The notes beneath the pieces were generated by a model that was not told the origin of the DNA, did no database searches, and was given only the letters and a program-made list of their open reading frames with translations. From Vermamoeba vermiformis (taxonomy: Eukaryota), in contig JBEWZL010000136.1 of NCBI GenBank assembly GCA_045837725.1, forward strand, positions 1-64,000: a stretch of 64,000 bases of DNA, written 5' to 3'. Positions 1,936-34,177 of this stretch are shown here, one piece after another. The position numbers were made by a program, and so were the translations under genes. The first letter of the stretch is position 1. Each line of letters opens with the position of its first letter.

Positions 1936-2941
1936 GTTAAATAAATAAATTAGGCCCTGCATAATTAAGTATTTAATTTCTAAATACGACCAATAATATT
2001 CGGACTTTTTAAAGTCCTCTGTAATAATTAAAATTTCCGAAATTTTTTGAAACAGATTTTACCATTCCAATCGAGATTTAATTGCGATAAGTACGATAAT
2101 AATTCGTATTCCACGATTATTCGTAGTATACGTAATATTGCAAGCGGATTTACGCTCTTTTGGAGACTAAAATCCGTAAGTACGCTCAAGCAGCTTGTGG
2201 CCGCGAGGATCACCAACGAAGTCTTTTGGACTCGCTAGTAATTTATGTAAAAAATAGGTGCAGACTCACTTGTGGTGACGCACACTATTTTTAAATTGAA
2301 ATGCTCGAAGCAAGAACGCAAGATTTGGGCACGTGACGCACACGTGATCGTACGTGTCATTGCCAAAAAAAGAAGATTTCCAAAAACGGATTTACAATTC
2401 AAATCAAACTGTCATGTCAACAGCACGACTAATTTATTACTGTTCGCGTATTTATTTACAACATAGAGTAACGCGCCGCAGTATCAAAACCGTTCCAGCG
2501 CGAGTTTTTACGGATTTGGAGCTGATGCGAAAATGATCGCGTCAGAATTCTTTAAACGTCAGCAGATCGACCACAAGGGTCCAAATCTCGAGTAATTTTG
2601 GTTATTAACAGCTGATAGTGACGCGCCACGGCAGCCAGGGCCGTTCAGCGCGAGTTATTTGGATGGAAGTCGATGCGAAATCTAGATACGCAGCAGATCG
2701 ACTTACAAGGCCGATTTTTGTCACAATATACCGCCATAACGGGTTAACGGCGGATTTTGGTAAGTTCGTGTTGATACTCGTTCGATCCAATCCTGAGGAT
2801 TCGGATTTGAATTTTATTTAATACTAATACTAAAATAAATCACTAATTTTTGAAAACATAGATCAAACGGTCCTGAATTGCCAATTCTGTAACTTGCGTT
2901 GGTAAAAATAAAAACGATTTTAAGTTAATTTTTTTTATTTG

Positions 2942-3340
2942 TAGATCGTCTCCACGATGGAGACGACCCTTTCGGACTTAATTTTTGTTTACTAGATCGT
3001 CTCCGCGCTGGAGACGACCCGCGTGGACTTTGTTTTTTTTGGAGATCGTCTCCGCGCTGGAGACGACCTATACGGACTTCGTATTTTTTTAGGAGATCGT
3101 CTCCGCGCTGGAGACGACCTGTACTGACTTAATTTTTTTAGGGGATCGTCTCCGCGCTGGAGACGACCTTTGGGGACTTTGTATTTTTTCGCAGATCGTC
3201 TCCGCACTGGAGACGACCCTTACGGACTTTGTTTTTTTTTGTAGATCGTCTCCGCGCTGGAGACGACCCTTACGGACTTTGCATTGTTTCGCAGATTGTC
3301 TCCGCGCTGGAGACGACCCCTGGGTACATAATTTTTTTGC
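2942..3340. repeat. Tandem array of 8 units of about 50 bp, each with palindromic core AGATCGTCTCC-GCGCT-GGAGACGACC
   Basis: Units start near 2943, 2993, 3043, 3094, 3143, 3193, 3243, 3293; spacers are related to each other (ggactt...T-tract). Confidence 0.92.
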
Positions 3341-3952
3341 AGGTTGGTTGTGAGTGCGGGTAAGGGTTAGGTACGGGATTACCTAAGCAAAATTTTGCTT
3401 AAGTAAAATTCAACGGGGACTTTTGTTTATTTTAGTAACTTTTCAAGGCTAGCCCTATATGGCCAGGCCCTTTTACATATATGAATTATTTGTTGTGCCT
3501 ATTTACTGCACAATTTTTCAACAAAATTAAGCATTCATATACTGCTTTATATAAGTTCATTTACTGGGTTCAAATTCCTAAATAATCTCATTTTGCAGCA
3601 AAAAAGTTCAACAAAAAATGAGTTTAAAGCCTCTTTAAACTCTATAACCTGTGGGTTTTTATAACCCAGAAGCCTACTATAATTAAGCTGGTTATAGCTA
3701 GGTAACTCTACCCTTCTATTGCTATGCTCCTAGGCCATTCTCTTTTGCTTTAAAATTTATCATTACCATAAAAGGAAAAAAGGCCAAAAGCGTCCCCACC
3801 CAGGGGACGGTTTTCTAAAAGCATCCCCTCAGTGGGGACGCTTTTTTTAACTGTGTTTTGAAATTTTTGTTTTTTATTTGAAAAAATCAATACACAAGAA
3901 ACCCTAGCAAAAATTTTAGCCCTAGAGTATATATAATTCAAAGCTGGTTTTT

Positions 3953-4483
3953 GACCATCCGAAATTCGGATGCTTTGACTGAGTATAAACTTCTACTAAC
4001 TCATTTATTTTACGTCATACAATCAGGGACTCTTCACCCCTCAACCTTTAACCTTAACCCCAAAGGTATATTAATTTATTTTTGTATTAACTTTGTTTTT
4101 AATAAATAAAGGACATTTAACTGCTACTTGTATATTACTGGACCATCCGAATTTCAGATGCCTGTGCCTTCTAATGAGACTTTAACTTTTTCAGGCAACT
4201 TTATAGACCATCCGAAGTTCAGATGCCTATACGTTCAAAAATGAGATATCAGGTTTTCGTAGCTACTTTTAGACCATCCGAACTTCGGATGCCTATGCAT
4301 TCAAAAATGAGCTATTAGGTTTTTGTAGCTACTTGTTAGACCATCCGAACATCGGATGCCCTTGTTGGAGAATATGGGCTATTAGAAGTACATACCTGGT
4401 TATAACCGTCCGAACGTCGGATGCCTCTAACTATCTAGCTATCAGTTATTCAAAGCTGGTTTTTGACCATCCGAAGTTCGGAG
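3953..4483. repeat. Seven copies of palindrome GACCATCCGAA-N-TTCGGATGCC (mostly about 65-bp period), plus a roughly 130-bp duplication (about 3937-4074 and 4449-4574)
   Basis: Copies near 3953, 4141, 4206, 4272, 4339, 4404, 4465, read directly. Confidence 0.85.
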
Positions 4484-4933
4484 TATAAACTTCTACTAAC
4501 TCATTTATTTTACGTCATACAATCAGGGACTCTTCAGCCCTCAACCTTTAACCTTAACCCCAAAGGTATATTAATGTACAAGTACCTTTTTGTTGAAACT
4601 TGTGCAGAACGCGATTGCATTTACGATGTCTCTCAGTACAGCATTGCGAAAGCATTTGCCAGCATTAGTCGTGGCTTTGCGTACAGAGCTTTCTTTGAAG
4701 ACGAGCAAAAATTACTAGTTGTTCGTGATCAACTAGTTCAATACATCTTGAAGAATATTGACGCTGAACCATCAACTGAAATTGTTGGCAAGCTGGAAGA
4801 TACTAAATTAGTGCCATATGATACCAAAGATATCTCTGATGAAGACCATGGCCGCTCTGCTGACTCATCTTCACGCAAACGCAAGGCCTCTCAAAGTCCA
4901 GAAAGGGACATTGAACCTAGACGTCATCACTGA
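4463..4933 (+). CDS. Hypothetical ORF or exon with basic C-terminal tail (RKRK)
   Basis: 156-aa ORF; its 5' part overlaps the repeat, so the real coding part may start near 4607 after an AG acceptor. Confidence 0.3.
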   Translation: MTIRSSEYKLLLTHLFYVIQSGTLQPSTFNLNPKGILMYKYLFVETCAERDCIYDVSQYSIAKAFASISRGFAYRAFFEDEQKLLVVRDQLVQYILKNIDAEPSTEIVGKLEDTKLVPYDTKDISDEDHGRSADSSSRKRKASQSPERDIEPRRHH

Positions 4934-6318: not shown

Positions 6319-9300
6319 CTAATGTGAATAAGCTACAAGAGTTGAAATATAAATCGTGGCTTGATATTGAGTGTATGCAGTGCTTGGGTTGTTAGACACA
6401 AATAATGAAACCCACTTGAGAGGGTAATCAGGAACACCAGTGGTACCACCATTACCTCCCCAATAACCACTGTTTTCTATTTTATACACAACAAACTTCC
6501 AACCAGTCCAATCAATGTTAACAACCATTTGAAACATCTGCATCGACAATAAGCAATGATGCTGCACTTGAAATTGATTGAGACTTACCTCTCCAGTGTT
6601 GTCAAGTACTCTAATGCCAGCAGACACACCTGAACCATCACCATAAACCCATTGACCAAATCTGTTAGGAGTGCCAACAATTGTGTAGTGAACTTTGGTA
6701 TCAAAAGTGTAGTAACGGTAGCCGTTGGAGGAAACATAGTTCAACGCAACAATGCCATAAGAGTCAAATCCCAATGGCATTGTAGCCGGCTTTGCCAAAG
6801 TAAAGTCAATAGAAGCTGTAACAGCAGAGTCACCACCCAAATAAGCAGCGAAGTTTTGTTGCAATGAAGTGTTAGTGAGAGTGGAGAAGTCATCAAACTG
6901 TGAGACAGCCAAAGGAGATCCCCTGTTGCGAAAGTTAGAAATCAATCGTAACTGCATACAACGCTTACTTGGTATATGTCATAGCGCCACTAGACAAGGC
7001 CAAGCTGATCGAAGTAGTTTGGTTTGACGAGAGCTGACCATCAACTAAGACAATCGGTGATGAGCATGCAGCAGTGGTTACATCAAATGAGGTCAGTTGG
7101 CCGTTAACAGTCACAGCAAGACGAGCGGACCTATTGTTAATTAGACAGAGTAGTAACGAGGTTCGACAACTTACAAGTCTATCGAGGTTTGGACTGACAC
7201 GGGGATTGAACCATTGACAGTGGTTGGGTACGCAATCGGCTGCACAGCAAATATTGGTGCAACACGTGATTGCATTCGAAGGGGTCCGAATGACGTGAAG
7301 TTGACGAAGATCGGCAAATCATAAGCGAGTGCATCTAAAAATACATCAACGTGATGCCACAACGCAACTGTTTGGCCTGGAGCGACAGTGATGCCGGTTT
7401 GTTCGTAGTAGTCGAGCGTCACGTCCTCGTTGAGCGGATTGGTGAAGAACAATACAAAGTCGACGAGCTTCTCCGTAATAATGAGTGGTGGCTTAGAGAC
7501 GAAGGCAATCACTTGCAAGTAGGGATTAGTTGTAACGGGCACGATGTATTGCACCTCTTCTGTAGCTCCAATCGTTAGAGACTGGCCACTGCTAACTGTA
7601 ACGTCGTTTGTCAAATTGCCAACGTAGTTCGTGAAGCGGAACGACCCTGGACTAACTGGTAGCGATACTGTCTCTGTTTGGTTCACAAGCGTGGACCACA
7701 CGGCAAGAACCAAGTCATCGGCTGCATTGGAAAGGAGCACGATCCAAACACTTGAAGAATCGGTGTGGATACGCTTATTGAATCTCAACCCGCTTGCAAT
7801 GTTCTTCAGCGTGCGAGCTGCGAAGTAAGATGGCTTTGGGTTGTAGGGATAATCGCCCGACGACAAATAAGCGTTGTAAACTGTACCAAAGTGGTGCTCT
7901 TTGTTTGCGGGATCAGTGCCGTCGTCGTGCCAATCGTACCTGCCGTTGAATTAGCTTTGTAAAGTGCTTGAACGTAGTGAGTGCTTACCAGATAGACATC
8001 ACGACATCCATGGCCATGTTGGTCAAGAACATGCGCGGCAAATACATGGCTTGTTGGTGCTCCGTGACGATAGTAGTCGGGTAGCCCCACTCGCCAGCGA
8101 TAATCGGAATGAGTGGTTTGTTGGCGGGCTTGTAGCGCTCGATGAGCAGCGTCAGGGTGAAGTAGTCAGTCAACACATTTTCAGGATTGACCCAGCGATA
8201 CGGATGAATGGACACGCCGTCCCAGTACTCCAATAGCCCGTTCTCAAAGCAGCTTTCGATGAATGCCCAGTCCAAACCTGCAAGAGCAGGACCGATGTGG
8301 TACTCTTTCGGGAAGTTGCCTTTCAGCGCTCTACCAACCACCATGGCTAAGTTAATGAACTGCGTGACATTCGGTGAAGGCGTCCAAAAGCCAATGTTTG
8401 GCTCGTTGTACATCTCCCAAACTGAACCATTTCCGCTCAACAGCTCGAGAGAGCGCATCGTGTAGTTGACAAAACCGGCAATAGCTACAGAGTGACACGT
8501 GTCAGATACTACCTACCACTTAATGCTGGTTACACGTACCTGTCTCGCTGATTGGCGAAGTACCATTGTCATAGAATGAATTTCTGTAGTCCAAAATCCA
8601 GTAAGGAGTCGTGTTGAATGAGCGCAACGTGTTGGAGAGCGCGTCGTACTTTGAGAAGTCGTAGCTCAGAGGTGCGCGATATTCGATCCTGTAGGCAAAT
8701 TCATTACTCCCTCATGCTTGCATTGTAACACTCTACTTACGAGCCCCAATCTAAATCACGACGTACAACGCTGAAGGCATCAGAAAGCATTCTGACCTCA
8801 CGATCGGTCGGAGTAATAATGTGAGCAGCTACACCGAGGTTAGCAGTCGGTGAGTTGGTGAAGCATTGATCGTTCAGACAAACCGATTGCACGCCTGCTG
8901 GAATGGTCACTGTGAATCGGGCTTGAGGAGAGCAGTTCTCCATGGAAAGGGATACTAAGCCAAAAATAGCAGCAACGAAAACGGCAGTTCTGATAAACAA
9001 ATGTTAATAAGACTCGCTGCAGTATCTGACAATCATGTAGCGTACTTTTGATTGGAAAGCAGCTGAACCAACAGCCCGAGAATCAGAGTGGACGCAACGG
9101 CAGAAAGTCCACTAGCTCCACTAACTTGCGAGGAGGGCACGGTCGAAGCGAAGTTAACTTTGGCTTCGAGGACCAGCAGAGCTCCGTTTTGGTTGTTCGT
9201 CAACTGCAGCGGGGTGCCATCCAAATTGCCGTCAGTAAACAAATTGACATCGACCGTAATCTCTTGCGAATCAGTTTGCTTTACGATTATAACGTCCTGT

Positions 9301-9548
9301 ATAATACTTAACGTCAGTGCTTACGCAACAGAAAGCGGAATTGATTTGTTTTTTGAGGGATGTCGAGAAAAAATCAAAATGTGCATTAACCGCTTACCTG
9401 AGAAGAGAAGCTAGATTTAATTTGAATAAATTTAACTCCGTACGATGGGTATGTGAAGGATTCTGAGTGTTTCAAACCGCAGGACGGATCCAGTGCCGTA
9501 ACGTATCCGAAAGCAGAGATCAATCCAACCACGAACACCAAAGCCAAG
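6319..9548 (-). pseudogene. Host multi-exon clan-A glycoside hydrolase (GH39/GH5-like) gene interrupted by the viral insertion; first codons lie at 34162-34177
   Basis: WEMYNEPN (acid/base Glu), SIHPY, IAGEWGY (nucleophile Glu), YDWHDDG...EHHFG; GT-AG introns (e.g. 9397-9297); joining across the TSD restores MKIGLALVFVVGLISAFG. Confidence 0.8.
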
Positions 9549-9664
9549 TGTAGCAGTGCGGGCTCAGGATAGCGAGTAGGCAGCGCTGAGCACGATTTAT
9601 GCTTGATTTATGCATGCCGGGCCTAATTTTTTGTTAGGCAGTGTCTCGATGTCGCACTATTTCA
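9549..9664 (+). repeat. Left terminal direct repeat (116 bp, TG...CA)
   Basis: Identical by eye to 34046-34161; ends are imperfect inverted repeats (TGTAGCAGTGCG vs TGAAATAGTGCG, 9/12). Confidence 0.97.
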
Positions 9665-9675
9665 TACGGGTCAAT

Positions 9676-9798
9676 GGGTCGGCCTCTCGACCCGGCAAGC
9701 CTAGGGTCTTCGGCCTCGCCTTGCCCCTCGTACTTTCTACGCCGTGTTGCTATTCCTTCGGAATGGTTCATACCCTTCGGGTATTCACCCCGCAACAC
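9676..9798. promoter_or_regulatory. Hairpin cluster just inside the left repeat (candidate ssDNA origin or structured RNA)
   Basis: Stems GGGTCG/CGACCC, GGCAAG/CTTGCC and GTGTTGC/GCAACAC, the last enclosing ATTCC-TTC-GGAAT and ATACCC-TTC-GGGTAT. Confidence 0.6.
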
Positions 9799-9833
9799 TA
9801 GCTCCGAAAGTCTGACAGGTACAGGTTGATTTA

Positions 9834-10451
9834 TTAAAGTGCTCCGACTTTACCCATCAGGTTCTCGCTCGCGCCCTTAGCGCCCAAATTGAGGTTCTTG
9901 CCGCGGTTTTTCTGGTAGCATATGAAAAGGTGAATTAAAAACCGGAGCCTGGGCTTGAGTTGCATATTAAGTTGTTGATTCTCCATCAACTCAAGTTCAA
10001 TCTCAGCCCAAGTATCTAGGATTTCCTCGTCATTAAGTGCGGCCAAGGCGAAATGATCAGATGCACCTGGTTTGTCCACTGCCTTGGCCCCAAATTCAAT
10101 CATATTTACAATTATACTGAGACCCATCGTAGACACTGGATTGCCCTTGATGGCCATTAAGGTAGTTTTGATCTCCTGCCAACGCGACTCGAGGTCTTCC
10201 TGGGATAGACCCGCGACATTACCATCCACGTTTGCTAAATATTTGTTCAATCGCCCTGTTTTGGCCTTTGTAATTAAGTTTTTAAGCAATGTCTTGCGCT
10301 TTTCGTCCTCAATTGGTTCCTCATAATATCCTGTGCCGGCATCATTAGGGGCAAATTCGTCTCCTTCATATTCGTCAGCAACATTATCATACGCGGGATC
10401 GTCGCCTAGGTCGACACCTGCCGTGTTCATCTCAATTATCTCTTCGGCCAT
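9834..10451 (-). CDS. Viral hypothetical protein, acidic N-terminus (205 aa)
   Basis: Intact ORF with upstream TAAAAATTTA...AATATA motif. Confidence 0.75.
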   Translation of the reverse strand: MAEEIIEMNTAGVDLGDDPAYDNVADEYEGDEFAPNDAGTGYYEEPIEDEKRKTLLKNLITKAKTGRLNKYLANVDGNVAGLSQEDLESRWQEIKTTLMAIKGNPVSTMGLSIIVNMIEFGAKAVDKPGASDHFALAALNDEEILDTWAEIELELMENQQLNMQLKPRLRFLIHLFICYQKNRGKNLNLGAKGASENLMGKVGAL

Positions 10452-12423: not shown

Positions 12424-12783
12424 TTACATAAATAAGTCAGCGACGATGACACCCGCGGCGGTACCTAATGCGGTGTATGCGGGGGCTAAGTAGTTGTAAA
12501 TACCAGGGTGCATCGTGATAATCTGTCTAAATACCTCGCCGCCCAAGAGTATCTGCGTGCCAGCTGCAAAAACAGCGGCCGTAGTGGCCTTTGAAGCGCT
12601 TACAGACTCACCCATGAGCATTGACGACACAACGACTGCTGAGCCACCGAATAAAGCGGCATTAACGGCTGCGGGAGCACTCGTATGGTATTTCTGCACG
12701 ACCGGTTGCAACACTGGAAAGGTAATTTTGCCAATAGTGAGGTCTGCACCGAATGCAAGACCTGATGCTAGTATAATATCCAT
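12424..12783 (-). CDS. Viral multi-pass membrane protein, paralogue of 30728-31090
   Basis: Gly/Ala-rich hydrophobic helices; MDIILASG...TALGTAAGVIVADLFM matches MDLILMGG...TGAGTVLGVMLGDMLF. Confidence 0.75.
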   Translation of the reverse strand: MDIILASGLAFGADLTIGKITFPVLQPVVQKYHTSAPAAVNAALFGGSAVVVSSMLMGESVSASKATTAAVFAAGTQILLGGEVFRQIITMHPGIYNYLAPAYTALGTAAGVIVADLFM

Positions 12784-12848
12784 ATTGTTAGTATGAAGTG
12801 ATATATATTGAATGCATTATATTACAAAATAAATAAAAATAAAAAACC

Positions 12849-12939
12849 TGACTGATGTGGCGCGACGGCGATGTGGAAATTTTGATAGTTATAAGTATAG
12901 GATTTTTAACGTCGCCGTCGCGCCACCTGAGTTGGGCCT
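12849..12939 (+). repeat. Palindromic intergenic element, copy 1
   Basis: Perfect 15-bp inverted repeat GTGGCGCGACGGCGA (12857-12871) / TCGCCGTCGCGCCAC (12912-12926) around an AT-rich TTTTGATAGTTATA core, followed by CTGAGTTGGGCC. Confidence 0.92.
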
Positions 12940-13641: not shown

Positions 13642-14184
13642 ATGTTAAATCCCTATAACGCAAAAAATACTGTAGCCTTCTACGGCGAATATTCGCGCAT
13701 TGTCATTATGATTGCGAGCAACGATAACACCCTTTTCACCATTGACTTTGAGGACTTTGAGAGGATCAAGACACACCGATGGTCAACCAACGGGGCCGGA
13801 TACCTTCAAACTTGCATTAATAAAAAATCTGTTTTCTTGCACAGATTCCTACTCGACGCCCAACCCGGCATCATTGTGGACCACAAAGACGGCAACTATA
13901 CAAACAACCGAAAGGCCAATTTGAGATTCGCTAACAAGGCCCAAAATAACCAAAATAGGGGCATTTCAAGGGCCAATAAAACGGGCTTCAAGGGCGTCCA
14001 ACGCATCGGTAATAAGTACTTATGCACGCTTAAATATACTGAAAACGGCATACAGCATATGGTCTGTGCGACCTTCGATGACCCTGTTAGTGCCGCGATT
14101 CAGTACAATGAGTTTGCAAGACAGTACCACGGGGAATTTGCAAGGCCCAATGTAATTCCACCAATGGACCCTGTTGCCGAGTAA
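13642..14184 (+). CDS. HNH endonuclease with C-terminal AP2-like DNA-binding domain (homing-endonuclease type)
   Basis: LHRFLL...VDHKDGNYTNNRKANLR...NNQN; TGFKGVQR...AAIQYNEFARQYHGEFARPN. Confidence 0.88.
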   Translation: MLNPYNAKNTVAFYGEYSRIVIMIASNDNTLFTIDFEDFERIKTHRWSTNGAGYLQTCINKKSVFLHRFLLDAQPGIIVDHKDGNYTNNRKANLRFANKAQNNQNRGISRANKTGFKGVQRIGNKYLCTLKYTENGIQHMVCATFDDPVSAAIQYNEFARQYHGEFARPNVIPPMDPVAE

Positions 14185-14215: not shown

Positions 14216-14776
14216 CTATTCAACCATTGTATCGAAAAACTCCTCAGGATTATGCAATTCCGACTTAATGGTTTCATATGTTAGATAAAGGACGGCTTTT
14301 TTCACCTCATCCTTAGACTTATTCGTTTCATTCAAGTACTCGAAGTCATCCCAGATACGAAACCAAATTTTGTCTTTGAAGACTCGCGAAAGGTTTTTCA
14401 CTAAAATATCTTTTACAAAGGCATATCTATCGATCCTATTTTGTGGATAAGCTATATGATTTTCGAAAAAGGCCTCCTTGAATATCATTACTGGGAATGT
14501 GTATCTGACTTGTCGCCGGTCCCAGGCGGAGGCATTCCAGCCTAATACATAATTTCCTGTCGGATGCCGCACCGGCTTATCCTTGCATATCGGGTCGTTG
14601 TCGTACTGATCGCAGTAAGCATCGATCCAATAGATGGGATAGCAGGCTTTGCAGACGTATATTGATCCAACTTTTTTAATCGTAGTAATATTTTTGCAGT
14701 GATCGCAGGTGAAATAATATGCGATATGCCATTTGCAATCGTCATTTAAATCCAATTTAGACAATATTATTTCCAT
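14216..14776 (-). CDS. Viral protein with F-box-like N-terminus and CxxC...CxxC finger (paralogue family)
   Basis: MEIILSKLDLNDDCKWHIAYYFTCDHC...CKAC; N-terminus shared with 22176-22781 and 23287-23802. Confidence 0.7.
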   Translation of the reverse strand: MEIILSKLDLNDDCKWHIAYYFTCDHCKNITTIKKVGSIYVCKACYPIYWIDAYCDQYDNDPICKDKPVRHPTGNYVLGWNASAWDRRQVRYTFPVMIFKEAFFENHIAYPQNRIDRYAFVKDILVKNLSRVFKDKIWFRIWDDFEYLNETNKSKDEVKKAVLYLTYETIKSELHNPEEFFDTMVE

Positions 14777-18242: not shown

Positions 18243-18288
18243 ATGGAAAATTAAAAATTAAAATATCAATTTTTTAAGGGTCTCAATA

Positions 18289-18373
18289 ATGTGGCGCGAC
18301 GGCGACGTGGAATTTTGATAGTTATATAAAATAGTTAAAAGTTATGTCGCCGTCCCGCCACCTGAGTTGGGCC
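18289..18373 (+). repeat. Palindromic intergenic element, copy 2
   Basis: GTGGCGCGACGGCGAC...TTTTGATAGTTATA...GTCGCCGTCCCGCCAC-CTGAGTTGGGCC between divergent genes. Confidence 0.9.
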
Positions 18374-18422
18374 TATTAATTAATTTGTATAATTTAAAAA
18401 TTTAATAGTCGTAATTATAGAC

Positions 18423-22175: not shown

Positions 22176-22781
22176 TTAAATATCAAAATAATTATCTGGA
22201 ATTGCTAGGCAATCTGTATATTCATCTACAGCAACGCCATCGTAATACATTAAGACAATTATAGTCTGCCTATTTGGCAACGAAATTAATGTTGCAAAGT
22301 CATAACCATGTGTAAATTTACTTATAATCTCTTGCTGTTCCGCGTTAGGTTTGTTTTTTCCCCTAAAGTTAATTATAATATGGTAAACGCTATCGTTCGT
22401 TTCAGGAAAGTAGAGCTGGCGCTGGTAAACATGGGCCTTGAAGTATTTACAAACAGTCCTCAATAGTTCAACGTTAATGGCCGAGCAAATATAATGCACC
22501 CTTGGGCGATAGATAGGAGCTGATGGCGTCTGACCTAAGTATTTAGTCTTATATTGGAGTGTTTCCCTCTCGAATCTTTCCATGTCGATACGCAACTCAA
22601 AGCATTCACTACAAATGCCGTCATTTAATATTCTAATTTCACCGCAGCAATCGCACACAAAGTATTTGCTAATTTCGTGCTTTATGTCGTCGATTATGTC
22701 GAGCTTTGAAATGATTATCGCGGCCATTGTGCTGTAAGTAGTAGTATTAAAAAATAATGTCTTGGGCCTAATAGACAACAT
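22176..22781 (-). CDS. F-box-like/Zn-finger paralogue 2 (probable start at the internal MAAIIISKLD)
   Basis: IISKLDIIDDIKHEISKYFVCDCC...CSEC. Confidence 0.7.
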   Translation of the reverse strand: MLSIRPKTLFFNTTTYSTMAAIIISKLDIIDDIKHEISKYFVCDCCGEIRILNDGICSECFELRIDMERFERETLQYKTKYLGQTPSAPIYRPRVHYICSAINVELLRTVCKYFKAHVYQRQLYFPETNDSVYHIIINFRGKNKPNAEQQEIISKFTHGYDFATLISLPNRQTIIVLMYYDGVAVDEYTDCLAIPDNYFDI

Positions 22782-23162: not shown

Positions 23163-23253
23163 AGGCCCATCTCAGGTGGCGGGACGGCGACGTTAAAAAT
23201 CCTATACTTATAACTATCAAAATTTCCACATCGCCGTCGCGCCACATCAGTCA
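23163..23253 (-). repeat. Palindromic intergenic element, copy 3 (inverted, near-identical to copy 1)
   Basis: Reverse complement matches 12849-12939 with 2 mismatches by eye. Confidence 0.92.
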
Positions 23254-23286: not shown

Positions 23287-23802
23287 TTACTCGCAAAGGT
23301 GCCTAAACATCGCGGGCGTTTGGTCGAATAACAAAGGCGCACAGGCCTCGAATAAAAGCGCCACTATTGCGTACTTTAGGTCGTTGTAGTCATTGATCAG
23401 GTCCTGTACGTAGTCTACGTAAAAGCCCCATACGCGAAACCAAACAAGGTAATGTCGCAACTTTTGACTAATTGCGCGTACAAACTCATTAAATATATCT
23501 CTACTTAGTGATACATGCGATGCATAGTCGTAGACTTCTCTTGGATACGCGCGGTGCATTTGTATCAGACCTGGTAGCAACCTAATGCGGCCCAAATGCA
23601 ACCACAGGCCGTGGTTTAGGCCCAATTCGCGGCACACAGATGCCCAATAAGGCACCCAATGAAACCTACAATCGCTACAGACCCACTTTCTTCCAATGTA
23701 CCTCAAACCCGCGACACGCCCGCACGATTCGCACTTGAAATATGCCTTTATCAGGTATTTCACGTCATCGATGATATCTAGCTTATCAATTATGATCTCC
23801 AT
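23287..23802 (-). CDS. F-box-like/Zn-finger paralogue 3
   Basis: MEIIIDKLDIIDDVKYLIKAYFKCESC...CSDC; also shares WFR(I/V)W with 14216-14776. Confidence 0.7.
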   Translation of the reverse strand: MEIIIDKLDIIDDVKYLIKAYFKCESCGRVAGLRYIGRKWVCSDCRFHWVPYWASVCRELGLNHGLWLHLGRIRLLPGLIQMHRAYPREVYDYASHVSLSRDIFNEFVRAISQKLRHYLVWFRVWGFYVDYVQDLINDYNDLKYAIVALLFEACAPLLFDQTPAMFRHLCE

Positions 23803-23906: not shown

Positions 23907-24098
23907 ATGGATATCCCAAATGCGCCTATTCGCCAACGTAAAGCAAAGGAATACGCACGTCCCCACTGCCCTGTATGCAACATTAGACACACCTACAAAA
24001 ACTCTAATGTATGTAGTTTGTGCCGACAGCGACTCAATATTGGTCGTAAACATTTGGAGGCCGCCAATGATTATGAGCGCTTCAGACATTTATTGTAA
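23907..24098 (+). CDS. Small viral zinc-finger protein
   Basis: CPVC...CSLC in a 63-aa ORF. Confidence 0.55.
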   Translation: MDIPNAPIRQRKAKEYARPHCPVCNIRHTYKNSNVCSLCRQRLNIGRKHLEAANDYERFRHLL

Positions 24099-24206: not shown

Positions 24207-24377
24207 TTACTTACGTTTGCGATCCTTTTTTAGTTTCGCCCCGCGCTTGTGTCTTGCCTTTAGTTTCGCTGCATTGGCCTTAGCAACGACCTTACTGTGG
24301 CCCTTTGGGTAATGTCGGTAATGGCCGTCTACCGTGTAGGTAGGTACCCAATACTTAGTCCTTAGGTTTGTTGGCAT
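24207..24377 (-). CDS. Small basic protein (56 aa), absent from the ORF track
   Basis: Manual translation: MPTNLRTKYWVPTYTVDGHYRHYPKGHSKVVAKANAAKLKARHKRGAKLKKDRKRK*. Confidence 0.6.
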   Translation of the reverse strand: MPTNLRTKYWVPTYTVDGHYRHYPKGHSKVVAKANAAKLKARHKRGAKLKKDRKRK

Positions 24378-24704: not shown

Positions 24705-24938
24705 CTAATTTTTTGTATTATTAAACACAGGCGATGGAAGAAGTATTCCCGCGACGGTGCTTAGCACAGGCAATCCAATTCCAACATTACCAGTCGCGCA
24801 CAAGAAAATACCTATGCCTACGATAGATAAGCTCGCAATGGCCGCCGTAGACTGCGGTAAGATTGCCTTTATAATATCAATTGTCGTATTACTTTTTGGC
24901 GCTTCTTGTTCGGGCGACTGCTGGTTTTGCTGCGACAT
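24705..24938 (-). CDS. Small two-TM viral membrane protein
   Basis: Two hydrophobic segments in 77 aa. Confidence 0.6.
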   Translation of the reverse strand: MSQQNQQSPEQEAPKSNTTIDIIKAILPQSTAAIASLSIVGIGIFLCATGNVGIGLPVLSTVAGILLPSPVFNNTKN

Positions 24939-27511
24939 TTTCTAGTCTTTCAATACGCTGGATTAAATCATTCACTATATTTTCAAGTGCCATATTTTTG
25001 TCTTGTAATTGTTTAATCAACTGCTTTTGGTGCTTTATTATTCCGAAGCTGATAAATGCAATTTCGTCGCCTGATACGGTCTGTATCGGGTCATCGGGAT
25101 TTTCAATAGTCTTCGGGTGAGTAGGTGAGGTGCGTATATTACCCAATTGGTGCTTCGTGTATAATGCATTCACCTCCTGTGCAATCATACCAAGCTTGAT
25201 ATCACTGGCATCTTCGTCGTCTTTGTAGTTGAAGTTAACCACCTGTACGGTGTCTATGTCGTCGTAAATATCGGCGATTGGGAGCTGTCTACGAATATTC
25301 TTGAGCCTAATATCAGAAATCGTATTCCAGGTCGTTGTAGTTAATTGAAGGCCTTGACTACCGGCTGCATTGGTTGAAAGATAATATCCCCCGGACATAC
25401 GCCCATAAAATGTCTTCTTTTGATTCGAAATTCAATTTGGGATTGAATTACCGTGTTTGCTAACACGCCCATCTTTCGCATGGGGATTGGACTATATCTT
25501 AAGCAATATCTACCATTTCAATAGATATCACCAACATCCATTTAGTCTCTGGACGCGATTACGTATAGTTAACGTAATATTCGCTGCGGATTGCCCATTT
25601 GACGCCTAATAGCAATCTATCGTATAACTTTTTACAATAGTCCAAATCATGAATTTGAAATGTTTTACCTGTAATTAACAGGGACTGTGTATTATACGCT
25701 TTAGGGGTTTCCCGCAATTTGAATGTTTCGCGAATAAAAGTATTTATTCACTATCGGCTACTTTTATAGCCGATTTAACGAGCAAGACATAATTTACTCG
25801 TTCCGCACGACACTGCTGTGGCGCTACTATCGCTGACACAGAAGCAATTGGAAAATGATGTCGAGCAATATGATCCAAAGATAAGAGTGCCGCCCGTATT
25901 GCCTGAAATGGTCGTATTTCCATTGCCGCTGCATAAAATCATGTTGGCCCCTGCGGTGGCCGTAATGCTGCCTCCGTTAGACGATATAATCGTAGAATTA
26001 TTGCCTCCTGAGATGCTTGCTGGGGTATTCGATGAAATAATGGAATTGGTGCCACCAGTGGACGTTATAGACCCCGAAGTTGACGCTATAATGGCCGAAT
26101 TGTCCGCACCAGACCCTAATGTGTTGCCACTGCCAACTACAATGGCGCGATCGACAGTTGAATTGATCGTGTTAGGTGTCGTGCCGCATACATCAATGCA
26201 CCTCATTTCACCTAGTCTATTGTTGTTGCACAGGATAAACTTAAAGTCAGAATCCAAGTTCAAGCTACCACCACCTTCACCATAGCAAGTGCCGACGTTG
26301 ATTTGACCACTCGATGCCGTATTGGATGAGTTCCTGACCTGTAAAACACCTGTAAGGGCCGATTTAAGTTGCGTTTGACCTAGCGTATTAATGGTCAATG
26401 TGCCCGTATTGATGGTGCCATCAGTACCCCCTACAGTGGTGCCTGAATTGATTGTACCGGCCATATTGATGACGGCCGAAGCCGGATTGATGTTAATATT
26501 ACCGGCGCTGGTAAGGTAATTGTTTGAGTAGACCGTCCCGGCCTGTACAGTACCGTCATTACCCCCGGCGGTAGATCCTACTTTGAATATACTACCTGTA
26601 GCGCCTGTAAGGTATGTGTTCGCGGCATTAACACCATCTCCAAGGACCAATGCGTCTGTATTACAGCTAAATCTTGGGTTATTATCACCAGATACTCTCA
26701 CGCTGAATTTAGTAAACCCTGCTACTGAATTAGGGAAAGTAATGGAATTCACTATTAGGTTAGCTGTATTACCACTCAGATCCTGAATTACAAGATATCC
26801 TGCACTTCCATTGACTAATTGTACGCCACCGGCCGCCGTAAGTTGCACATAGCCGACGTTCGTAAGACCTTTGTTGTTAAAAACGACATTGTTGCCGACT
26901 GGATTGATGTTTAAGTCGGCGCTATTGGTCGAAATAGTGTCGGTATAGGTCGTACCTAAGCGTAATGTTCCATTGGCCGATCCTAGTGCGGTGGTGGATA
27001 ATGTAAGATTACCTGCACCGGACCTGTACGCGAATGTATCTGCAACGTTATTGCCTGCTGACCATTGCATTGATCCGTCAGTTTTAATGGCCAATTTAGG
27101 GTTCACACCGGTAGTTGGATTGGTCGCGGTCAGGATACTAGTGGTGTTGCTACTGGACGACGTATTTATCGTTTTAAGGTCCAATGTGCCGCCCGTGATT
27201 GCCAATTCATTGGCCCCAACGCGTTGCAATCTGGTGTCCAATGCGTTAGTACCATCGCCAAAGTCAATGAATCCATCATACAACAGACTTAACCTATCGT
27301 TGGCGTCTCCAGTTATTTTAACACAGAATGCATCGGACCCACTAGACCCCACAAGAGGGCACAGTGAAGTTCCACTAGGGGGCTGTACAACTACATTGAT
27401 AGTGTTGTTGTTCGTTATACTACCCCCGCTAGGGTCAGTGTTGTCTATCCTTTTGTTGATATTTACAAAATCCATGAATTTATTATCAAGTATATTATAT
27501 TGCACAAACAA
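24889..27511 (-). CDS. Virion fibre/spike protein with C-terminal intramolecular chaperone (peptidase S74/ICA) domain; two exons (27511-25796 and 25416-24889), 747 aa after splicing
   Basis: G/N/T/S-rich beta repeats; SDIRLKNI...NFNYK...GMIAQEV plus coiled coil; junction ACG AGT|AAG ACA TTT TAT is in frame. Confidence 0.85.
25417..25795 (-). ncRNA. Group I self-splicing intron (379 nt, no internal ORF)
   Basis: P AAUUGCGGGAA (about 25709-25719), Q AAUCCGCAGC (25583-25592), R CAGAGACUAAA (25541-25551), S AAGAUAUAGUCC (25489-25500); P1 AACGAGU/GCUCGUU with U.G at the 5' splice site; P10 AUGUCUU/AAGACAU; terminal omega-G at 25417. Confidence 0.93.
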
Positions 27512-27636
27512 TGGTACTCGAAACTATCCTAATGTTAATTTTCATAGGCGGGGTCGTCGCCTACTTCGCAATGCTGAGGACCCAAAAGAAGCCTTCAAAG
27601 GGCCTAATCTCGCGTATAGACATGCTCTAAAAAAGG

Positions 27637-27720
27637 GGCCCAACTCAGGTGGCGGCACGGCGACGTAAGATTTACTATTTATATAACTATCAAAATATTC
27701 ATGTCGCCGTCCCACCACAT
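27637..27720 (-). repeat. Palindromic intergenic element, copy 4 (inverted)
   Basis: GGCCCAACTCAG-GTGGCGGCACGGCGAC...TATAACTATCAAAA...GTCGCCGTCCCACCAC between divergent fibre and capsid blocks. Confidence 0.88.
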
Positions 27721-27790
27721 TACTAGGGTAATTAATTTCGTTAATTTAAAAATTTAATACTACTTAATATAGTTCCTATTAAGCATACTA

Positions 27791-29518: not shown

Positions 29519-30265
29519 TTAATTAGGGCGCTCCTGCGTGATCTCGAGGGTCATCGTCCAGTTGGCGCCATTGAGGTCTACATCAGCATAGGTGCGCGAC
29601 TTGAGCATTACCGTGAAGGTCTTGAGATACACCCTGTTTGACAACTGAAGCTGTTGGAATTGCGTATTAATATTGAAATTTACATAATTAATGCTGTTTT
29701 GATCCATTGGTATTTCGAAAGTATAGCTAAGTCCATCAGTAGTCGCTAGGGGCGCTCCGAGCTCCTTTATAATAACATAAATGGGCGTAGGAATGCCTAA
29801 ATTGAATACATTGGTGCCTGTTTGGGATGTAGCGCTGCCTGTATCGGTCGTGCCGAATCCTAGCACTGCATTCATCGTGGACTGCGATAAATTAAGTACA
29901 AACGGATTAGTCCCTGCAATGGTCGTCTTGAGTGTTGTTGAGTCGAAAGTAATGGTAAATGCATTGGCGTACACCGCATTCATCGCCGCGGCCAGAGCTG
30001 CACTCAGTGTGGATGTTGTATAGGCCCCAGCGGCCAACGTTATTGTGTAAGTATTGCCCGCTGCTGTGAATACTAAAACATTGTTTGATGAGGTGATATT
30101 ATAAATGGTATTTGGGACCTGAGCATTCAATAGTCGCACACTAATAACACCGTCAAGGGCGTCTTGAATCGTGCATATAAAGTTGCTACTCGTGCCGCTG
30201 CTACGGTCGGCTGAGTTAATGACAACAGGTTTAATTTGCAATTGCTTTTTATCACTGCAACACAT
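29519..30265 (-). CDS. Minor capsid (penton-like single jelly-roll) protein
   Basis: INSADR...SSNF...VISVRLLNAQVPNTIYNI...DLNGANWTMTLEI, typical of PLV/NCLDV minor capsid proteins. Confidence 0.8.
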   Translation of the reverse strand: MCCSDKKQLQIKPVVINSADRSSGTSSNFICTIQDALDGVISVRLLNAQVPNTIYNITSSNNVLVFTAAGNTYTITLAAGAYTTSTLSAALAAAMNAVYANAFTITFDSTTLKTTIAGTNPFVLNLSQSTMNAVLGFGTTDTGSATSQTGTNVFNLGIPTPIYVIIKELGAPLATTDGLSYTFEIPMDQNSINYVNFNINTQFQQLQLSNRVYLKTFTVMLKSRTYADVDLNGANWTMTLEITQERPN

Positions 30266-30727: not shown

Positions 30728-31090
30728 TTAAAACAGCATATCTCCGAGCATTACACCTAGTACTGTGCCTGCACCAGTGATGCCATTGAAGACGTAGCTA
30801 GTCGCTGTTTGGCCGATTGAGTTGGCGATTGGCCAATATATGGTCCTACCAAGGCCAATTTGAAGTGCATTGACGGTCGCTACAATGCCCAACATTTCGG
30901 CACTGCTCAATTGATCGCCGTTTGATGTCTTAACTAAAACATATGATGCCAAACCCATGATGCTACCGTTAACGCCCGCTGGAAGGGACTGATTGATTCC
31001 ACTGAGTGATTGGTACAATGGCGGATATGTGAGCGGCGAAACAAACTTGTCAGCCGCTGCTGCGATACCTCCCATCAAAATTAAATCCAT
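30728..31090 (-). CDS. Viral multi-pass membrane protein (paralogue of 12424-12783)
   Basis: Hydrophobic 120-aa ORF with similar N- and C-termini. Confidence 0.75.
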   Translation of the reverse strand: MDLILMGGIAAAADKFVSPLTYPPLYQSLSGINQSLPAGVNGSIMGLASYVLVKTSNGDQLSSAEMLGIVATVNALQIGLGRTIYWPIANSIGQTATSYVFNGITGAGTVLGVMLGDMLF

Positions 31091-31145: not shown

Positions 31146-31616
31146 TTAATTTACCCAGTTGTACAACCAGTTTCGGTACGCGTAATCAGCACCTACTTCA
31201 GATAACATCGCGACACCCACTATATTAATCAATGCTGATGTATTGAATATCTGGCCGTCGCCAATGTAGAGAAGGGCTACGGTACCGAGTGCATTAATGG
31301 CTGGATTCGCTAAGGACTTTTCAAAGTCGCTAAGGGCACGATAGTCATTTACTTGCTCAATGACTGTCTCGCTGAATGCATTGGCAATTAAATTACCACC
31401 TGCGACTGCCATACCAAGGGCCATTGGAATACTCATATCATAACCGAAAAATGGTATTCGGCCCTGTCCTTGGCCCATGAAACTAGACACGGCGTATGCT
31501 ACAGCGCCCGCCGCCAGGGGCTTGGCCGCCACTTTTGAAATGCGTTGAAGCGTACTCTCACGCTCACCACTGGCCATGGCCGATCCCATCGGCATATATT
31601 GTGAATACTTGTTCAT
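31146..31616 (-). CDS. Viral multi-pass membrane protein (156 aa)
   Basis: About four Gly/Ala-rich hydrophobic helices. Confidence 0.75.
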   Translation of the reverse strand: MNKYSQYMPMGSAMASGERESTLQRISKVAAKPLAAGAVAYAVSSFMGQGQGRIPFFGYDMSIPMALGMAVAGGNLIANAFSETVIEQVNDYRALSDFEKSLANPAINALGTVALLYIGDGQIFNTSALINIVGVAMLSEVGADYAYRNWLYNWVN

Positions 31617-31849: not shown

Positions 31850-33025
31850 TTAATTTTTAATTAATTGTATTTGGTTTCGCACGGTCGTTATTGTCCCGCC
31901 ATCAGGGGCCTCAACAGTGTACTTGCCGCCATATACCTTGCTAACTGTGTAAATCTGCTTAGACCATTGAGGTATATAACCCTTTACGAAGTTGTGCCTT
32001 CTGTCAGATTGCAACCTAGGGTCTAATGCATAAATGGACACACGCACTTGATTTCCAACAGATACCTTCGGGAATTCCCTTGTGGTTTGTTTAATAGACT
32101 TATCCGCGGCCTGTTTGATACGTTTAGCTGCGGCTTTGGCCGTAGGATCACGCCTGTTCTTATCATGAAGGGAGAAAGGGCGGCACTTGGTAGTCGCATG
32201 TAGGGATTCGTTGTACATCAAAACGCACCAGTCAACAACGCGTCTATCTACCTTAAGGCGCGGTCCTGAGTTGTTAAGCATGTACTTTTGAATAATCCCC
32301 TTGATAGTCTTATTAAATCTCTCCACGATTCCCTGAGACTCCTTCACGTACACACCGGACCTAATATGCTTTGGATGGCCACCATTTGCCCTTGCAAATT
32401 CGTCAATGAAGGCCCTGAAGCTCGCTTCGAATTCCACTCCATTGTCCGATTTGATCACTTTTGGATGGTTCTGGGGCGTCATAATCTCACGCATGAAGTT
32501 CGCGGTATCAGTGGACGTCGGAGTCTTACCGTTGCGCTTAAGTAATGTCTTTACCCATGCGAATTTCGAAAAACAGTCTATGACACAGAATAGCCACACA
32601 TCTTCGTTATCGCCTGACTTGTAAAGGGTGCAATCGCATTGCCACACAGCATTAGGTTCCCGCACAATCGTTGGTCTTGTAATAGGATTGTTGCGTGCGA
32701 CATATCGTGTCCTTTGTTGCGTTTCATTTTTATTCAACCATTCATTTATGAATCTGAATGATATATTTGCGTATTCACGCTTGAGGTCATCGAAAAGTTT
32801 ATCACGGCCCAATCCGGTCTCTTTGTAGCGTGCTGATACAATCTCCTCGGCCTCCTGGGGTCTCACTACACGTCTATTGGTGCCAGAGGCGAAAAGTACT
32901 CCATTGCGCAATTCAAATTGGCTCGCAACGGCCTTAAAACGGTATATCCCGGACCTAGCAAGCGGCGGCAAGGCCCCTTCTGAGTGATACGCGATGATCC
33001 TGTTAATGTCCTCGTCAGTTAACAT
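31850..33025 (-). CDS. Retroviral-like (rve) DDE integrase, Polinton/PLV type
   Basis: WQCD, VIDCFSKFAW, IKSDNGVEF, SQGIVERFNKTIK, YNESLH, C-terminal VGNQVRV...FVKGYIPQWSKQIYTV. Confidence 0.95.
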   Translation of the reverse strand: MLTDEDINRIIAYHSEGALPPLARSGIYRFKAVASQFELRNGVLFASGTNRRVVRPQEAEEIVSARYKETGLGRDKLFDDLKREYANISFRFINEWLNKNETQQRTRYVARNNPITRPTIVREPNAVWQCDCTLYKSGDNEDVWLFCVIDCFSKFAWVKTLLKRNGKTPTSTDTANFMREIMTPQNHPKVIKSDNGVEFEASFRAFIDEFARANGGHPKHIRSGVYVKESQGIVERFNKTIKGIIQKYMLNNSGPRLKVDRRVVDWCVLMYNESLHATTKCRPFSLHDKNRRDPTAKAAAKRIKQAADKSIKQTTREFPKVSVGNQVRVSIYALDPRLQSDRRHNFVKGYIPQWSKQIYTVSKVYGGKYTVEAPDGGTITTVRNQIQLIKN

Positions 33026-33073: not shown

Positions 33074-33853
33074 ATGAATGCAATTAAGACCCCTTCATCC
33101 ATTTTAATGTGCGCGGCCCCGATGGCTGGCAAATCATACATGATATCCTATTTACTGTACTGTTTGTGCAAAATGAAGCGATTTAACCATGTTCTCGTGT
33201 TTTCACCAACGGCCCACGACGATTACAAGTTTGTGCCTGAAAATTGGCGTTATGACGAGTGGAAGCCTGATGTCGTGCAACATCATATGGCCCAACAGAA
33301 ACGACTGATGGGCGAAGGTAAAAACATTCAAATGGCAGTTGTTTTCGACGACATCATAGGTACTTTTAATATGAAAGACAAGCTCATTGAAAAACTAATG
33401 ACAACATTTAGGCATTATAATATGACTATATTTGTCGCGACTCAGTGGGTTTATGCATGCCCACCGTCGATTCGTAATTCGGCTTCGTATGTATTTATAT
33501 TTCAACAGTCAATGGCCAGGGCATTTGACGCATTGTACGAGTCATTTGGCCAATTGTTCGAGACCAAGGAGCAATTCAAGCGCGTGATAAATTCCTGTAC
33601 GCATGACTATAATGTACTTATGTACGATCGAATGGCCCCAAATGATATCCGTAAGAAATACAAAGTAGTCAAAGCAGGTGTTGTACCGTCCAATTTTAAA
33701 TTAGTTGATGCCGCGAAACAAAAAAATTCTCAAACTAAAAATTTAAGTTATGATAATTATAATACAAATTACAACGAAGATGACGACACCGAATACCGTG
33801 GACAAATCGTTCCTCGCTCAATGCATAATTATGGCCGCGGAGGAATTTATTAA
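33074..33853 (+). CDS. A32-like genome packaging ATPase (FtsK-HerA superfamily)
   Basis: Walker A AAPMAGKS, Walker B VVFDD, RHYNMTIFVATQ, PPSIRN. Confidence 0.92.
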   Translation: MNAIKTPSSILMCAAPMAGKSYMISYLLYCLCKMKRFNHVLVFSPTAHDDYKFVPENWRYDEWKPDVVQHHMAQQKRLMGEGKNIQMAVVFDDIIGTFNMKDKLIEKLMTTFRHYNMTIFVATQWVYACPPSIRNSASYVFIFQQSMARAFDALYESFGQLFETKEQFKRVINSCTHDYNVLMYDRMAPNDIRKKYKVVKAGVVPSNFKLVDAAKQKNSQTKNLSYDNYNTNYNEDDDTEYRGQIVPRSMHNYGRGGIY

Positions 33854-34076
33854 AATCGAGGACAACAGCAGGGCCGCTTTACTTACTTATAATAATGACA
33901 ATCTGTTGGAAATCAAGTTGCTTCAATCAGGTGGTTTCATTGCAGCTGAAGCGGCCAAGATGTACATAGCCGCGCGTGGTGGGGCAGCTACACAGGCGGC
34001 ACTTAAGGCCGAGATGGAGCGTGCTATGAGGGCTGAAACGGACCCTGTAGCAGTGCGGGCTCAGGATAGCGAGTAG
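33750..34076 (+). CDS. Viral hypothetical protein whose 3' end lies inside the right terminal repeat (likely start about 33780)
   Basis: Frame reads ...ETDPVAVRAQDSE* with stop at 34074-34076, inside 34046-34161. Confidence 0.55.
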   Translation: MIIIIQITTKMTTPNTVDKSFLAQCIIMAAEEFIKIEDNSRAALLTYNNDNLLEIKLLQSGGFIAAEAAKMYIAARGGAATQAALKAEMERAMRAETDPVAVRAQDSE

Positions 34077-34161
34077 GCAGCGCTGAGCACGATTTATGCT
34101 TGATTTATGCATGCCGGGCCTAATTTTTTGTTAGGCAGTGTCTCGATGTCGCACTATTTCA
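34046..34161 (+). repeat. Right terminal direct repeat (116 bp, TG...CA)
   Basis: Identical to 9549-9664; followed by TSD CCAAG. Confidence 0.97.
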
Positions 34162-34177
34162 CCAAGCCAATCTTCAT
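34162..34177 (-). pseudogene. Displaced start (MKIGL) of the host glycoside hydrolase gene
   Basis: ATG AAG ATT GGC TTG G continues in frame into 9543 and below once the element and one TSD copy are removed. Confidence 0.8.

Follow-up and report, generated by a model that had tools for sequence, protein, structure and literature searches.

The window, a stretch of 64,000 nucleotides of Vermamoeba vermiformis DNA, contains an element of 24,613 bp which is bounded by two direct repeats and lies within a host gene; its features are listed in Table 1. The two repeats are identical at 116 of 116 positions, and the identity does not extend by a single base on either side. Both run from TG to CA, and the two ends of the repeat are inverted copies of each other at 9 of 12 positions. 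Inverted ends of this quality (at least 9/12) occur in 43 of the 63,884 116-mers of the window; only two of these also show TG...CA, and these two are the repeats. On the outside, both copies are adjoined by CCAAG. Among the seven lengths tried for a target-site duplication (TSD; 3 to 9 bases), only 5 fits, and the probability that two random host 5-mers are identical by chance is p = 0.00125. The initial annotation had described identical 116-bp TG...CA repeats with a CCAAG duplication, imperfect inverted copies at the repeat ends, and the lack of an adjoining TGG primer-binding site (PBS) or polypurine tract (PPT). All of this was reproduced, the last point for both repeats and in both orientations. 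No inverted pair of at least 25 nt was found at the element termini, where the 9/12 match is the only one.

Table 1. Coordinates of the features at the locus (positions in the window)
Feature	Position	Strand	Evidence or remark
Left TSD copy, CCAAG, 5 bp	9544..9548	+	Sequence; spanned by an X1 contig
Left direct terminal repeat, 116 bp	9549..9664	+	TG...CA; imperfect inverted att-like ends, 9/12
Branched stem-loop region just inside the left repeat, 170 bases, non-coding	9665..9834	-	
Palindromic internal repeat, copy 1 of four (ca. 90 bp)	12845..12939	+	Directly upstream of the HUH-like gene
Probable HUH rolling-circle endonuclease, 178 aa	12988..13524	+	
HNH endonuclease	13642..14184	+	HNH_3, E=1.9e-7; phrog_99, E=2e-29
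UL9-like SF2 helicase, 1129 aa	14853..18242	-	Herpes_ori_bp, E=4.4e-32
Palindromic internal repeat, copy 2	18282..18380	+	Upstream of the helicase gene
Palindromic internal repeat, copy 3	23163..23253	-	98% inverted match to copy 1
Small CxxC-CxxC gene	23907..24098	+	Common to the mini-element in L001/L002
Small basic gene	24207..24377	-	Common to the mini-element in L001/L002; 60% identity to L002 (tblastx)
Fibre gene with C-terminal S74 chaperone, split by a group I intron	24889..27475	-	Peptidase_S74, E=5.1e-9
Group I intron, 379 nt	25417..25795	-	RF00028, 100.7 bits
Palindromic internal repeat, copy 4	27628..27738	-	
Double jelly-roll major capsid protein, NCLDV-like, 415 aa	28211..29458	+	
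Candidate minor capsid protein	29519..30265	-	DUF5901, E=1.5e-8; role suggested by size and position
rve (DDE) integrase, 391 aa, intact	31850..33025	-	rve, E=3.7e-11
A32-like packaging ATPase	33074..33853	+	Pox_A32, E=6e-6
108-aa ORF	33750..34076	+	Stop codon within the right repeat
Right direct terminal repeat, 116 bp	34046..34161	+	Identical to the left copy
Right TSD copy, CCAAG	34162..34166	+	
Start and first codons of the interrupted host gene	34162..34177	-	Remaining signal-peptide-like first exon lies left of 9544

The internal motifs that had been annotated in the repeat are present, i.e. GATTTATGC occurs twice, and both the GCCTAA/TTAGGC stem and the GCTCAG/CTGAGC stem were found. 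The hairpins do not, however, exceed chance: the repeat as a whole is not unusually structured (z -0.38; 62 of 200 shuffles fold equally well), and it matched no known RNA family. Significant structure lies just inside the left repeat, where the fold of positions 9665-9834 reaches z -4.48 (0 of 200 shuffles as good) and -34.9 kcal/mol, compared with -29.8 kcal/mol for the best of 144 element tiles. The region forms several hairpins with TTCG on the plus strand or GAA loops on the minus strand, and may be considered a candidate single-strand origin or terminator. A reading of the repeat and the adjacent region as a non-coding RNA was dropped (plus-strand RNA fold, z -0.83).

The element comprises about 30 apparently intact ORFs. 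Pfam matches were obtained for six of 29 ORFs (rve, Pox_A32, Herpes_ori_bp, HNH_3, Peptidase_S74, and DUF5901), and a further one matches Spc7 below the threshold. For the major capsid protein (MCP), the single-sequence model was unusable (pLDDT 33.1); the model based on 103 sequences, which was used instead, has a pLDDT of 94.3. Its best fold matches are the capsid proteins of PBCV-1 and an iridovirus (E~1e-18) and other NCLDV MCPs, and 688 relatives were found at E<=0.001. The predicted spliced product of the fibre gene has 735 aa; among the splice pairs listed, the one chosen is the only in-frame pair with P1 and a 7-bp P10. Group I introns are known in polinton-like viruses (PLVs) from a short gene upstream of the MCP gene and, within the part of the literature available, not from the fibre gene. 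Three minus-strand ORFs (14216-14776, 22176-22781, and 23287-23802) have starts which look similar by eye, roughly II.KLD..DD.K..I..YF.C..C; this suggests a small paralogous family with a CxxC motif. Three small hydrophobic ORFs rich in Gly and Ala (12424-12783, 30728-31090, and 31146-31616), the first two of which start alike, are possible virion membrane proteins. Neither reverse transcriptase (RT) nor gag nor PolB has a family match in the 29 element ORFs (Pfam and PHROG), and a six-frame motif scan detected none of them. The same holds for pPolB, for which the element contains no Pfam or PHROG match and no motif, and no protease was matched by Pfam in the 29 ORFs. VLTF2, VLTF3, and RuvC gave no Pfam match at E<=0.01 in these ORFs, a search which divergent forms could escape.

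With respect to replication, the 178-aa ORF at 12988 is a probable HUH endonuclease. It has an Atlas score of 0.95 to clusters with REP_ORF2-G2P on 11-14% of their members, and stretches resembling motif I, HSH, and YxxK are conserved in a relative with 72% identity. The assignment is graded as probable because the HMM and PDB searches did not confirm it: no sequence match to HUH proteins was obtained in Pfam, PHROG, or PDB. The helicase shows primase (AEP)-like motifs in its N-terminal part, as judged by motif patterns, and had no AEP match in Pfam. The four internal palindromic repeats are spaced by about 4.5-5.4 kb, and three of them are located between divergent genes; they gave no match in viral_contigs and are candidate promoters or origins. 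Baculovirus hrs resemble them.

The integrase gene lies about 1 kb from the 116-bp cassette. Its best PDB matches are retroviral integrase structures, and the residues D131, D194, and E235 are invariant in all three aligned sequences. In agreement with the annotated integration by an rve enzyme, which generates a 5-bp TSD without reverse transcription, a complete catalytic triad is thus combined with 29 ORFs without a match to RT, gag, or PolB. The closest relatives (integrase 65%, HUH 72%) reside on metagenome contigs of 24,170 and 24,827 bp, i.e. near unit length. The metagenome scan, which missed the 24,170-bp contig of P0002, gave 18 loci: two are close (L001 and L002) and 16 are distant, with 24-30% identity. 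Scans of viral_contigs gave 0 confirmed relative loci, and six distant loci in bacterial bins (genome_contigs; 20-30% identity) were left out of the comparisons. In L001 and L002, which stem from one metagenome, a 51-54% identical integrase is found beside homologues of two small viral genes. They represent a mini-element of about 2.4 kb (L001 1-2393, L002 1024-1802) with host-like flanks, for which a weak kinase match was obtained (E=0.018), and without a capsid gene. Its apparent ends, taken from two different copies, are short TG...CA inverted repeats matching at 7 of 8 positions (the best of 80 candidate pairs, the next reaching 6/8); no TSD and no direct repeat accompany them. Apparently, this is a Ginger-like transposon, either descended from these viruses or passed on to them, and it lends tentative support to the view that the integrase family can function as a transposase whose target ends lie within uninterrupted DNA.

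Excising the element together with one TSD copy restores a minus-strand host reading frame, which starts at 34177 and resembles a hydrophobic signal peptide; to the left of 9544, it extends as far as a GTAAG donor-like site near 9398. Of eight removal lengths tried, two (2 and 5 bases) keep the frame, and only 5 bases constitute an exact duplication. In the RNA run X4, three reads of a homologous gene go from 9493 into the hydrophobic stretch in the same frame. The 5-bp TSD is a real insertion scar splitting the host signal-peptide frame. Two independent MITE insertions were rejected, as neither 116-bp repeat has a TSD of its own. The flanking DNA contains intron-rich eukaryotic genes (P-type ATPase, haem peroxidase, and GST according to Pfam); phi-class enzymes are among the best solved relatives of the GST, which argues against an animal host. 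X4 and the DNA run X7 match the host flank loosely (9 and 2 of 30 bins, respectively) and are uninformative on expression or age; among the runs listed, no RNA run holds the stretch.

Further observations concern the host side. Left of the insertion, variant contigs exist for 8944-9189 and 9322 of the host gene at roughly one quarter to one third of the depth; this suggests other alleles or a paralogue, and none of those displayed is an insertion-free allele. Tandem arrays occupy positions 2929-3332 and 3920-4578, with 50-bp units containing an internal palindrome and with 65-67-bp units. A 98-bp direct repeat, whose copies are 500 bp apart, occurs with these arrays, near ORFs at 871-1936 which have no Pfam match. 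The arrays are possibly another mobile element.

Three of the seven runs listed hold all or part of the stretch; all three come from one sample, which is probably the window's own source. Since X1 and X2 represent this one sample, they test the assembly and not an independent occurrence. In X1, a single contig with a depth of 477.7 leads from host position 9090 through the TSD into the repeat (to 9578, i.e. its first 30 bases); the depth of the host is about 469 and that of the element interior 422-474. In X2, the respective values are 70.6 and 63-70. The left junction, which is located within one X1 contig, is consequently real, and the interior, at host depth, is single-copy; for the same reason, the sample contains no large episomal pool. 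No circle junction or free genome occurs among the contigs, and k-mer contigs cannot phase a 116-bp repeat. These data bear on the possibility that the assembly built a circular viral contig, overlapping at its ends, into a host scaffold, or that the arrangement arose by chance. According to the available text of PMC11253617 and PMC4642659, direct repeats on metagenomic PLV contigs are usually the assembly overlap of a circle, and PMC4642659 reads them as circularity; moreover, all runs with the element belong to one sample. An artefact is nevertheless highly improbable: the repeats end exactly at the TG and CA of att-like ends flanked by a 5-bp TSD, a host reading frame is regained when the empty site is reconstructed, a single short-read contig at host depth contains the left junction, and X2 supports the right junction.

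The reads also disclosed a third repeat end. In both X1 and X2, a contig leaves the repeat at its final base and enters a flank beginning with GGAAC; this flank differs from the element interior and from the known right flank, and it does not occur in the window. The loose-end consensus of X2 behind 9664 agrees letter for letter, as read by eye, with a tie-mix of two flanks, namely the known right one and one more. Thus, a second target is joined at exactly the same terminal CA in two of two runs of the sample; consequently, the terminus is not permuted, which supports the ends as annotated. This third end, of which one side is displayed, may stem from a solo repeat, from a full insertion present in a minority of cells, or from an element related to this one. 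The target CCAAG and the GGAAC at the start of the second flank share SSAAS, two cases being too few for a preference.

Taken together, we are confident that the repeats bound an intact 24.6-kb provirus of a small, mriyavirus-related DNA virus (Nucleocytoviricota-like and PLV-sized), which was inserted into a host gene by its own rve integrase and adopted an LTR-like layout without reverse transcription. It shares the order TSD-LTR-genome-LTR-TSD, the TG...CA direct repeats, a TSD within the range of 4-6 bp, and the rve integrase with retroviruses and LTR retrotransposons. In contrast to these, it possesses no RT, gag, PBS, or PPT and encodes a DNA-virus capsid instead. Therefore, the repeats cannot come from reverse transcription, and an LTR retrotransposon with a captured virus was rejected, RT, PBS, and PPT being absent.

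Polintons/Mavericks and mavirus-type virophages (Polintoviricetes) resemble the element with respect to the rve integrase, a TSD of 5-6 bp, the double jelly-roll (DJR) capsid, and the A32 ATPase, as far as described in the available parts of PMC12220804 and PMC8547959. However, they carry long terminal inverted repeats and pPolB, whereas the repeats of the element are short and direct, and neither pPolB nor a protease was matched. Endogenous PLVs and virophages are described with terminal inverted repeats (TIRs) and short TSDs in the accessible text of PMC12220804, PMC8547959, PMC10120064, PMC11702301, and PMC11296320. The Mriyaviricetes (Yaraviridae, Gamadviridae) have, like the element, an NCLDV-like MCP, HUH, and no DNA polymerase, and a subset combines AEP with a UL9-like SF2 helicase, as seen here (PMC11253617, available text). 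Stretches resembling motifs I-III are present in the probable HUH protein of the element, and no DNA polymerase was matched. According to the text of the preprint bioRxiv 10.64898/2026.06.19.733378 at hand, however, Mriyaviricetes have genomes of 35-45 kb without integration genes, whereas the element has 24.6 kb and an rve integrase. VLTF2, VLTF3, and RuvC, which are conserved in Mriyaviricetes following the same part of PMC11253617, had no match here, although divergent forms could escape.

The same preprint describes, in the text available, Zoravirus (VC102) and VC218, which like the element have 20-30 kb, an NCLDV-like MCP, a minor capsid protein (mCP), and an A32 ATPase (bioRxiv 10.64898/2026.06.19.733378). 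HUH is reported there for about half of VC102 and 28% of VC218, RVE for 57% and 62%, and complete genomes are defined by direct or inverted terminal repeats. Our element combines an NCLDV-like DJR MCP, an A32 ATPase, and a size of 20-30 kb with both HUH (probable) and RVE (firm); given this matching gene set, it plausibly belongs to Zoravirus/VC218. A Mriya48 gene was not among the Pfam and PHROG matches of the 29 ORFs, of which several small ones have no assignment. The preprint text mentions no integrated copy, TSD, TG...CA direct ends, or integration mechanism; its figures, supplements, and genomes may show such ends. In the literature outside subscription papers, as far as its text was available, we came across neither a DNA virus with capsid genes whose integrated form ends in TG...CA direct repeats inside a TSD, nor an account of such a virus integrating by cointegration. 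The element, seen at one locus in one sample, thus represents a type of virus that became known recently, integrated with ends for which we found no description.

A similar architecture is known from KolobokP, which according to the accessible text of PMC9587614 has direct terminal repeats with short inverted ends, an outer TSD, a DDE enzyme, an HNH-type nuclease, no RT, and solo repeats. It differs from the element by a Kolobok-family transposase instead of rve, by repeats of about 450 or 660 bp instead of 116 bp, by its restriction to animals, and by the lack of capsid and replication genes. In analogy to KolobokP (PMC9587614, same text), the integrase might cut both strands at the outermost ends and thereby release repeat-genome-repeat from an existing provirus or a concatemer. 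The HNH gene of the element fits in with such a composite cut-and-paste transposition, as does the transposase-like behaviour suggested by the capsid-less mini-element. We consider it quite improbable, because it accounts for the spread of the element and not for the second repeat of an incoming one-repeat genome; additionally, the interior is single-copy in the sample, and the window contains no tandem (repeat-genome)n array. KolobokP also offers a parallel for a route in two steps, in which the integrase moves the 116-bp cassette alone as a MITE, thereby making the TSD, and the viral circle recombines in later by homology: solo terminal repeats (LTDRs) of KolobokP appear excised, and the available part of PMC9587614 proposes that a circle can re-enter a solo LTDR. 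The third repeat end with a single-copy interior and the att-like ends on both sides of the cassette agree with this route. It requires recombination over merely 116 bp and predicts many more solo cassettes than full elements, whereas one extra flank was found among those displayed, and we judge it improbable.

More exactly than an LTR provirus, the element resembles a cointegrate, and it belongs neither to the LTR retroelements nor to the Polintons or mriyaviruses proper. In the cointegrates of Mu, Tn3, and IS26 (IS6 family), a circular donor containing one element fuses to the target, giving rise to the same type of product, i.e. two direct copies with an outer TSD. These systems are bacterial, and their transposase is part of the unit that is duplicated. 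In the element, by contrast, a 116-bp cassette is duplicated, and the integrase gene is found about 1 kb outside it; this is an analogy, not a homology. IS26 pseudo-composites are mentioned alongside KolobokP in the accessible text of PMC9587614.

As the best explanation, to which we assign a probability of roughly 45%, we propose that a circular free genome with one repeat integrates by replicative cointegration. The free genome would be a circle of 24,497 bp with a single 116-bp cassette, replicated in rolling-circle mode by HUH and the helicase, and the cassette would act as a minimal transposon. The integrase would nick after the CA at each cassette end, on opposite strands and 116 bp apart, and would transfer both 3'-OH ends to the host DNA, at points staggered by 5 bp. 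Fill-in synthesis with strand displacement, starting at the host 3' ends, would then copy the 5-bp target and the cassette, yielding TSD-repeat-genome-repeat-TSD. Because the staggered nicks leave a full cassette copy on each strand, both the repeat and the target would be duplicated. Besides fill-in, the process would need just two DDE chemical steps, namely the nick after CA and strand transfer. Recombination between the two repeats could regain the circle, one repeat staying behind as a solo copy flanked by the TSD; the circle might also be copied out without excision, provided that HUH nicks within the repeat.

Several observations argue for cointegration. The repeats are identical without extension, and the TSD is found only outside them. 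The combination of a probable HUH protein with the lack of pPolB and TIRs implies a circular or concatemeric stage, and the relatives with respect to integrase and HUH reside on contigs of near unit length. Genomes of mriyaviruses (PMC11253617) and of Zora (bioRxiv 2026.06.19.733378) are read as circular or terminally redundant in the text available of these sources. The first gene at the left end is directed towards the left repeat, and an ORF coming from the right side ends in the repeat. Since the 108-aa ORF stops inside the right repeat, the latter is continuous with viral coding sequence, and in a one-repeat circle two genes would converge on the cassette. The third repeat end at the exact CA, together with the single-copy interior, fits a solo repeat, and the mini-element, with its 54% identical integrase and embedded ends, suggests that the family can cut ends within continuous DNA. 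Against cointegration, two ends that are just 116 bp apart must meet in one complex. Moreover, linear ends are the substrate of the rve integrases known from retroviruses, Polintons, and mavirus.

The latter point leads to a linear, terminally redundant substrate, as envisaged by the initial annotation. Here, rolling-circle concatemers would be matured to repeat-genome-repeat, the repeat being duplicated at maturation as it is at the ends of T7 and herpesviruses, and the integrase would join the outer ends in the manner of the retroviral or mavirus enzyme. The product would be the same as that seen, the best PDB matches of the integrase are retroviral, and a linear molecule suits the known habits of rve enzymes. 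An extra activity is needed, however, to cut and duplicate the exact ends; the packaging ATPase is of the A32 type, for which to our knowledge no nuclease domain is known, and there is no pPolB or terminal-protein system. Solo-like copies are explained only through later recombination. TSDs of 5-6 bp are also made by mavirus and Polintons (PMC8547959, available text), and the related direct-repeat contigs are described as circular or terminally redundant in the text at hand of PMC11253617, which also speaks for this route. On balance, we regard a linear substrate as rather unlikely. Of the annotated claim, the part stating that the substrate was made without reverse transcription stands; that it was linear with two repeats is not established, as a one-repeat circle gives the same product.

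A similar distinction applies to the age of the insertion, which had been called very recent. This is plausible in view of the intact ORFs and the otherwise intact host exon. Repeat identity as a proof was overstated: 0 differences in 116 bases allow for a divergence of up to 2.5%, and under cointegration the repeats are copied at insertion and would be identical in any case.

The joint occurrence of HUH and RVE in these viruses poses a puzzle, as rolling-circle genomes imply circles and rve integrases are known for linear ends. The locus preserves the integrated product, and the question can be tested with one enzyme and a 116-bp cassette. In more general terms, a eukaryotic DNA virus with a circular rolling-circle genome would use a retroviral-type integrase for replicative cointegration via a single 116-bp cassette, which would give rise to an LTR-like provirus, solo "LTRs", and a built-in exit by recombination or HUH-driven release; this generalization is tentative, and we put its odds somewhat below even.

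In the text available of a survey of protist endogenous viruses, TIRs are reported at 47% of 7,382 high-quality sites (PMC10120064), and in the accessible part of PMC12220804 the TSD analysis is restricted to elements passing the TIR filter. As inverted repeats define the element boundaries in such surveys, proviruses with direct repeats would be underrepresented there, and programs that search for LTRs could classify them, together with their solo repeats, as retrotransposons. For the amoeba, the finding means that a small relative of giant viruses acts as an insertional mutagen of a host gene, and it points to an undescribed integration route for a circular DNA virus. If this is true, a 24-kb circle was inserted via one short cassette, which makes the integrase of interest as a tool, and the layout of a retroviral provirus has been reached a second time by a DNA-only route, which might be general among the mriyavirus-like viruses combining HUH and RVE.
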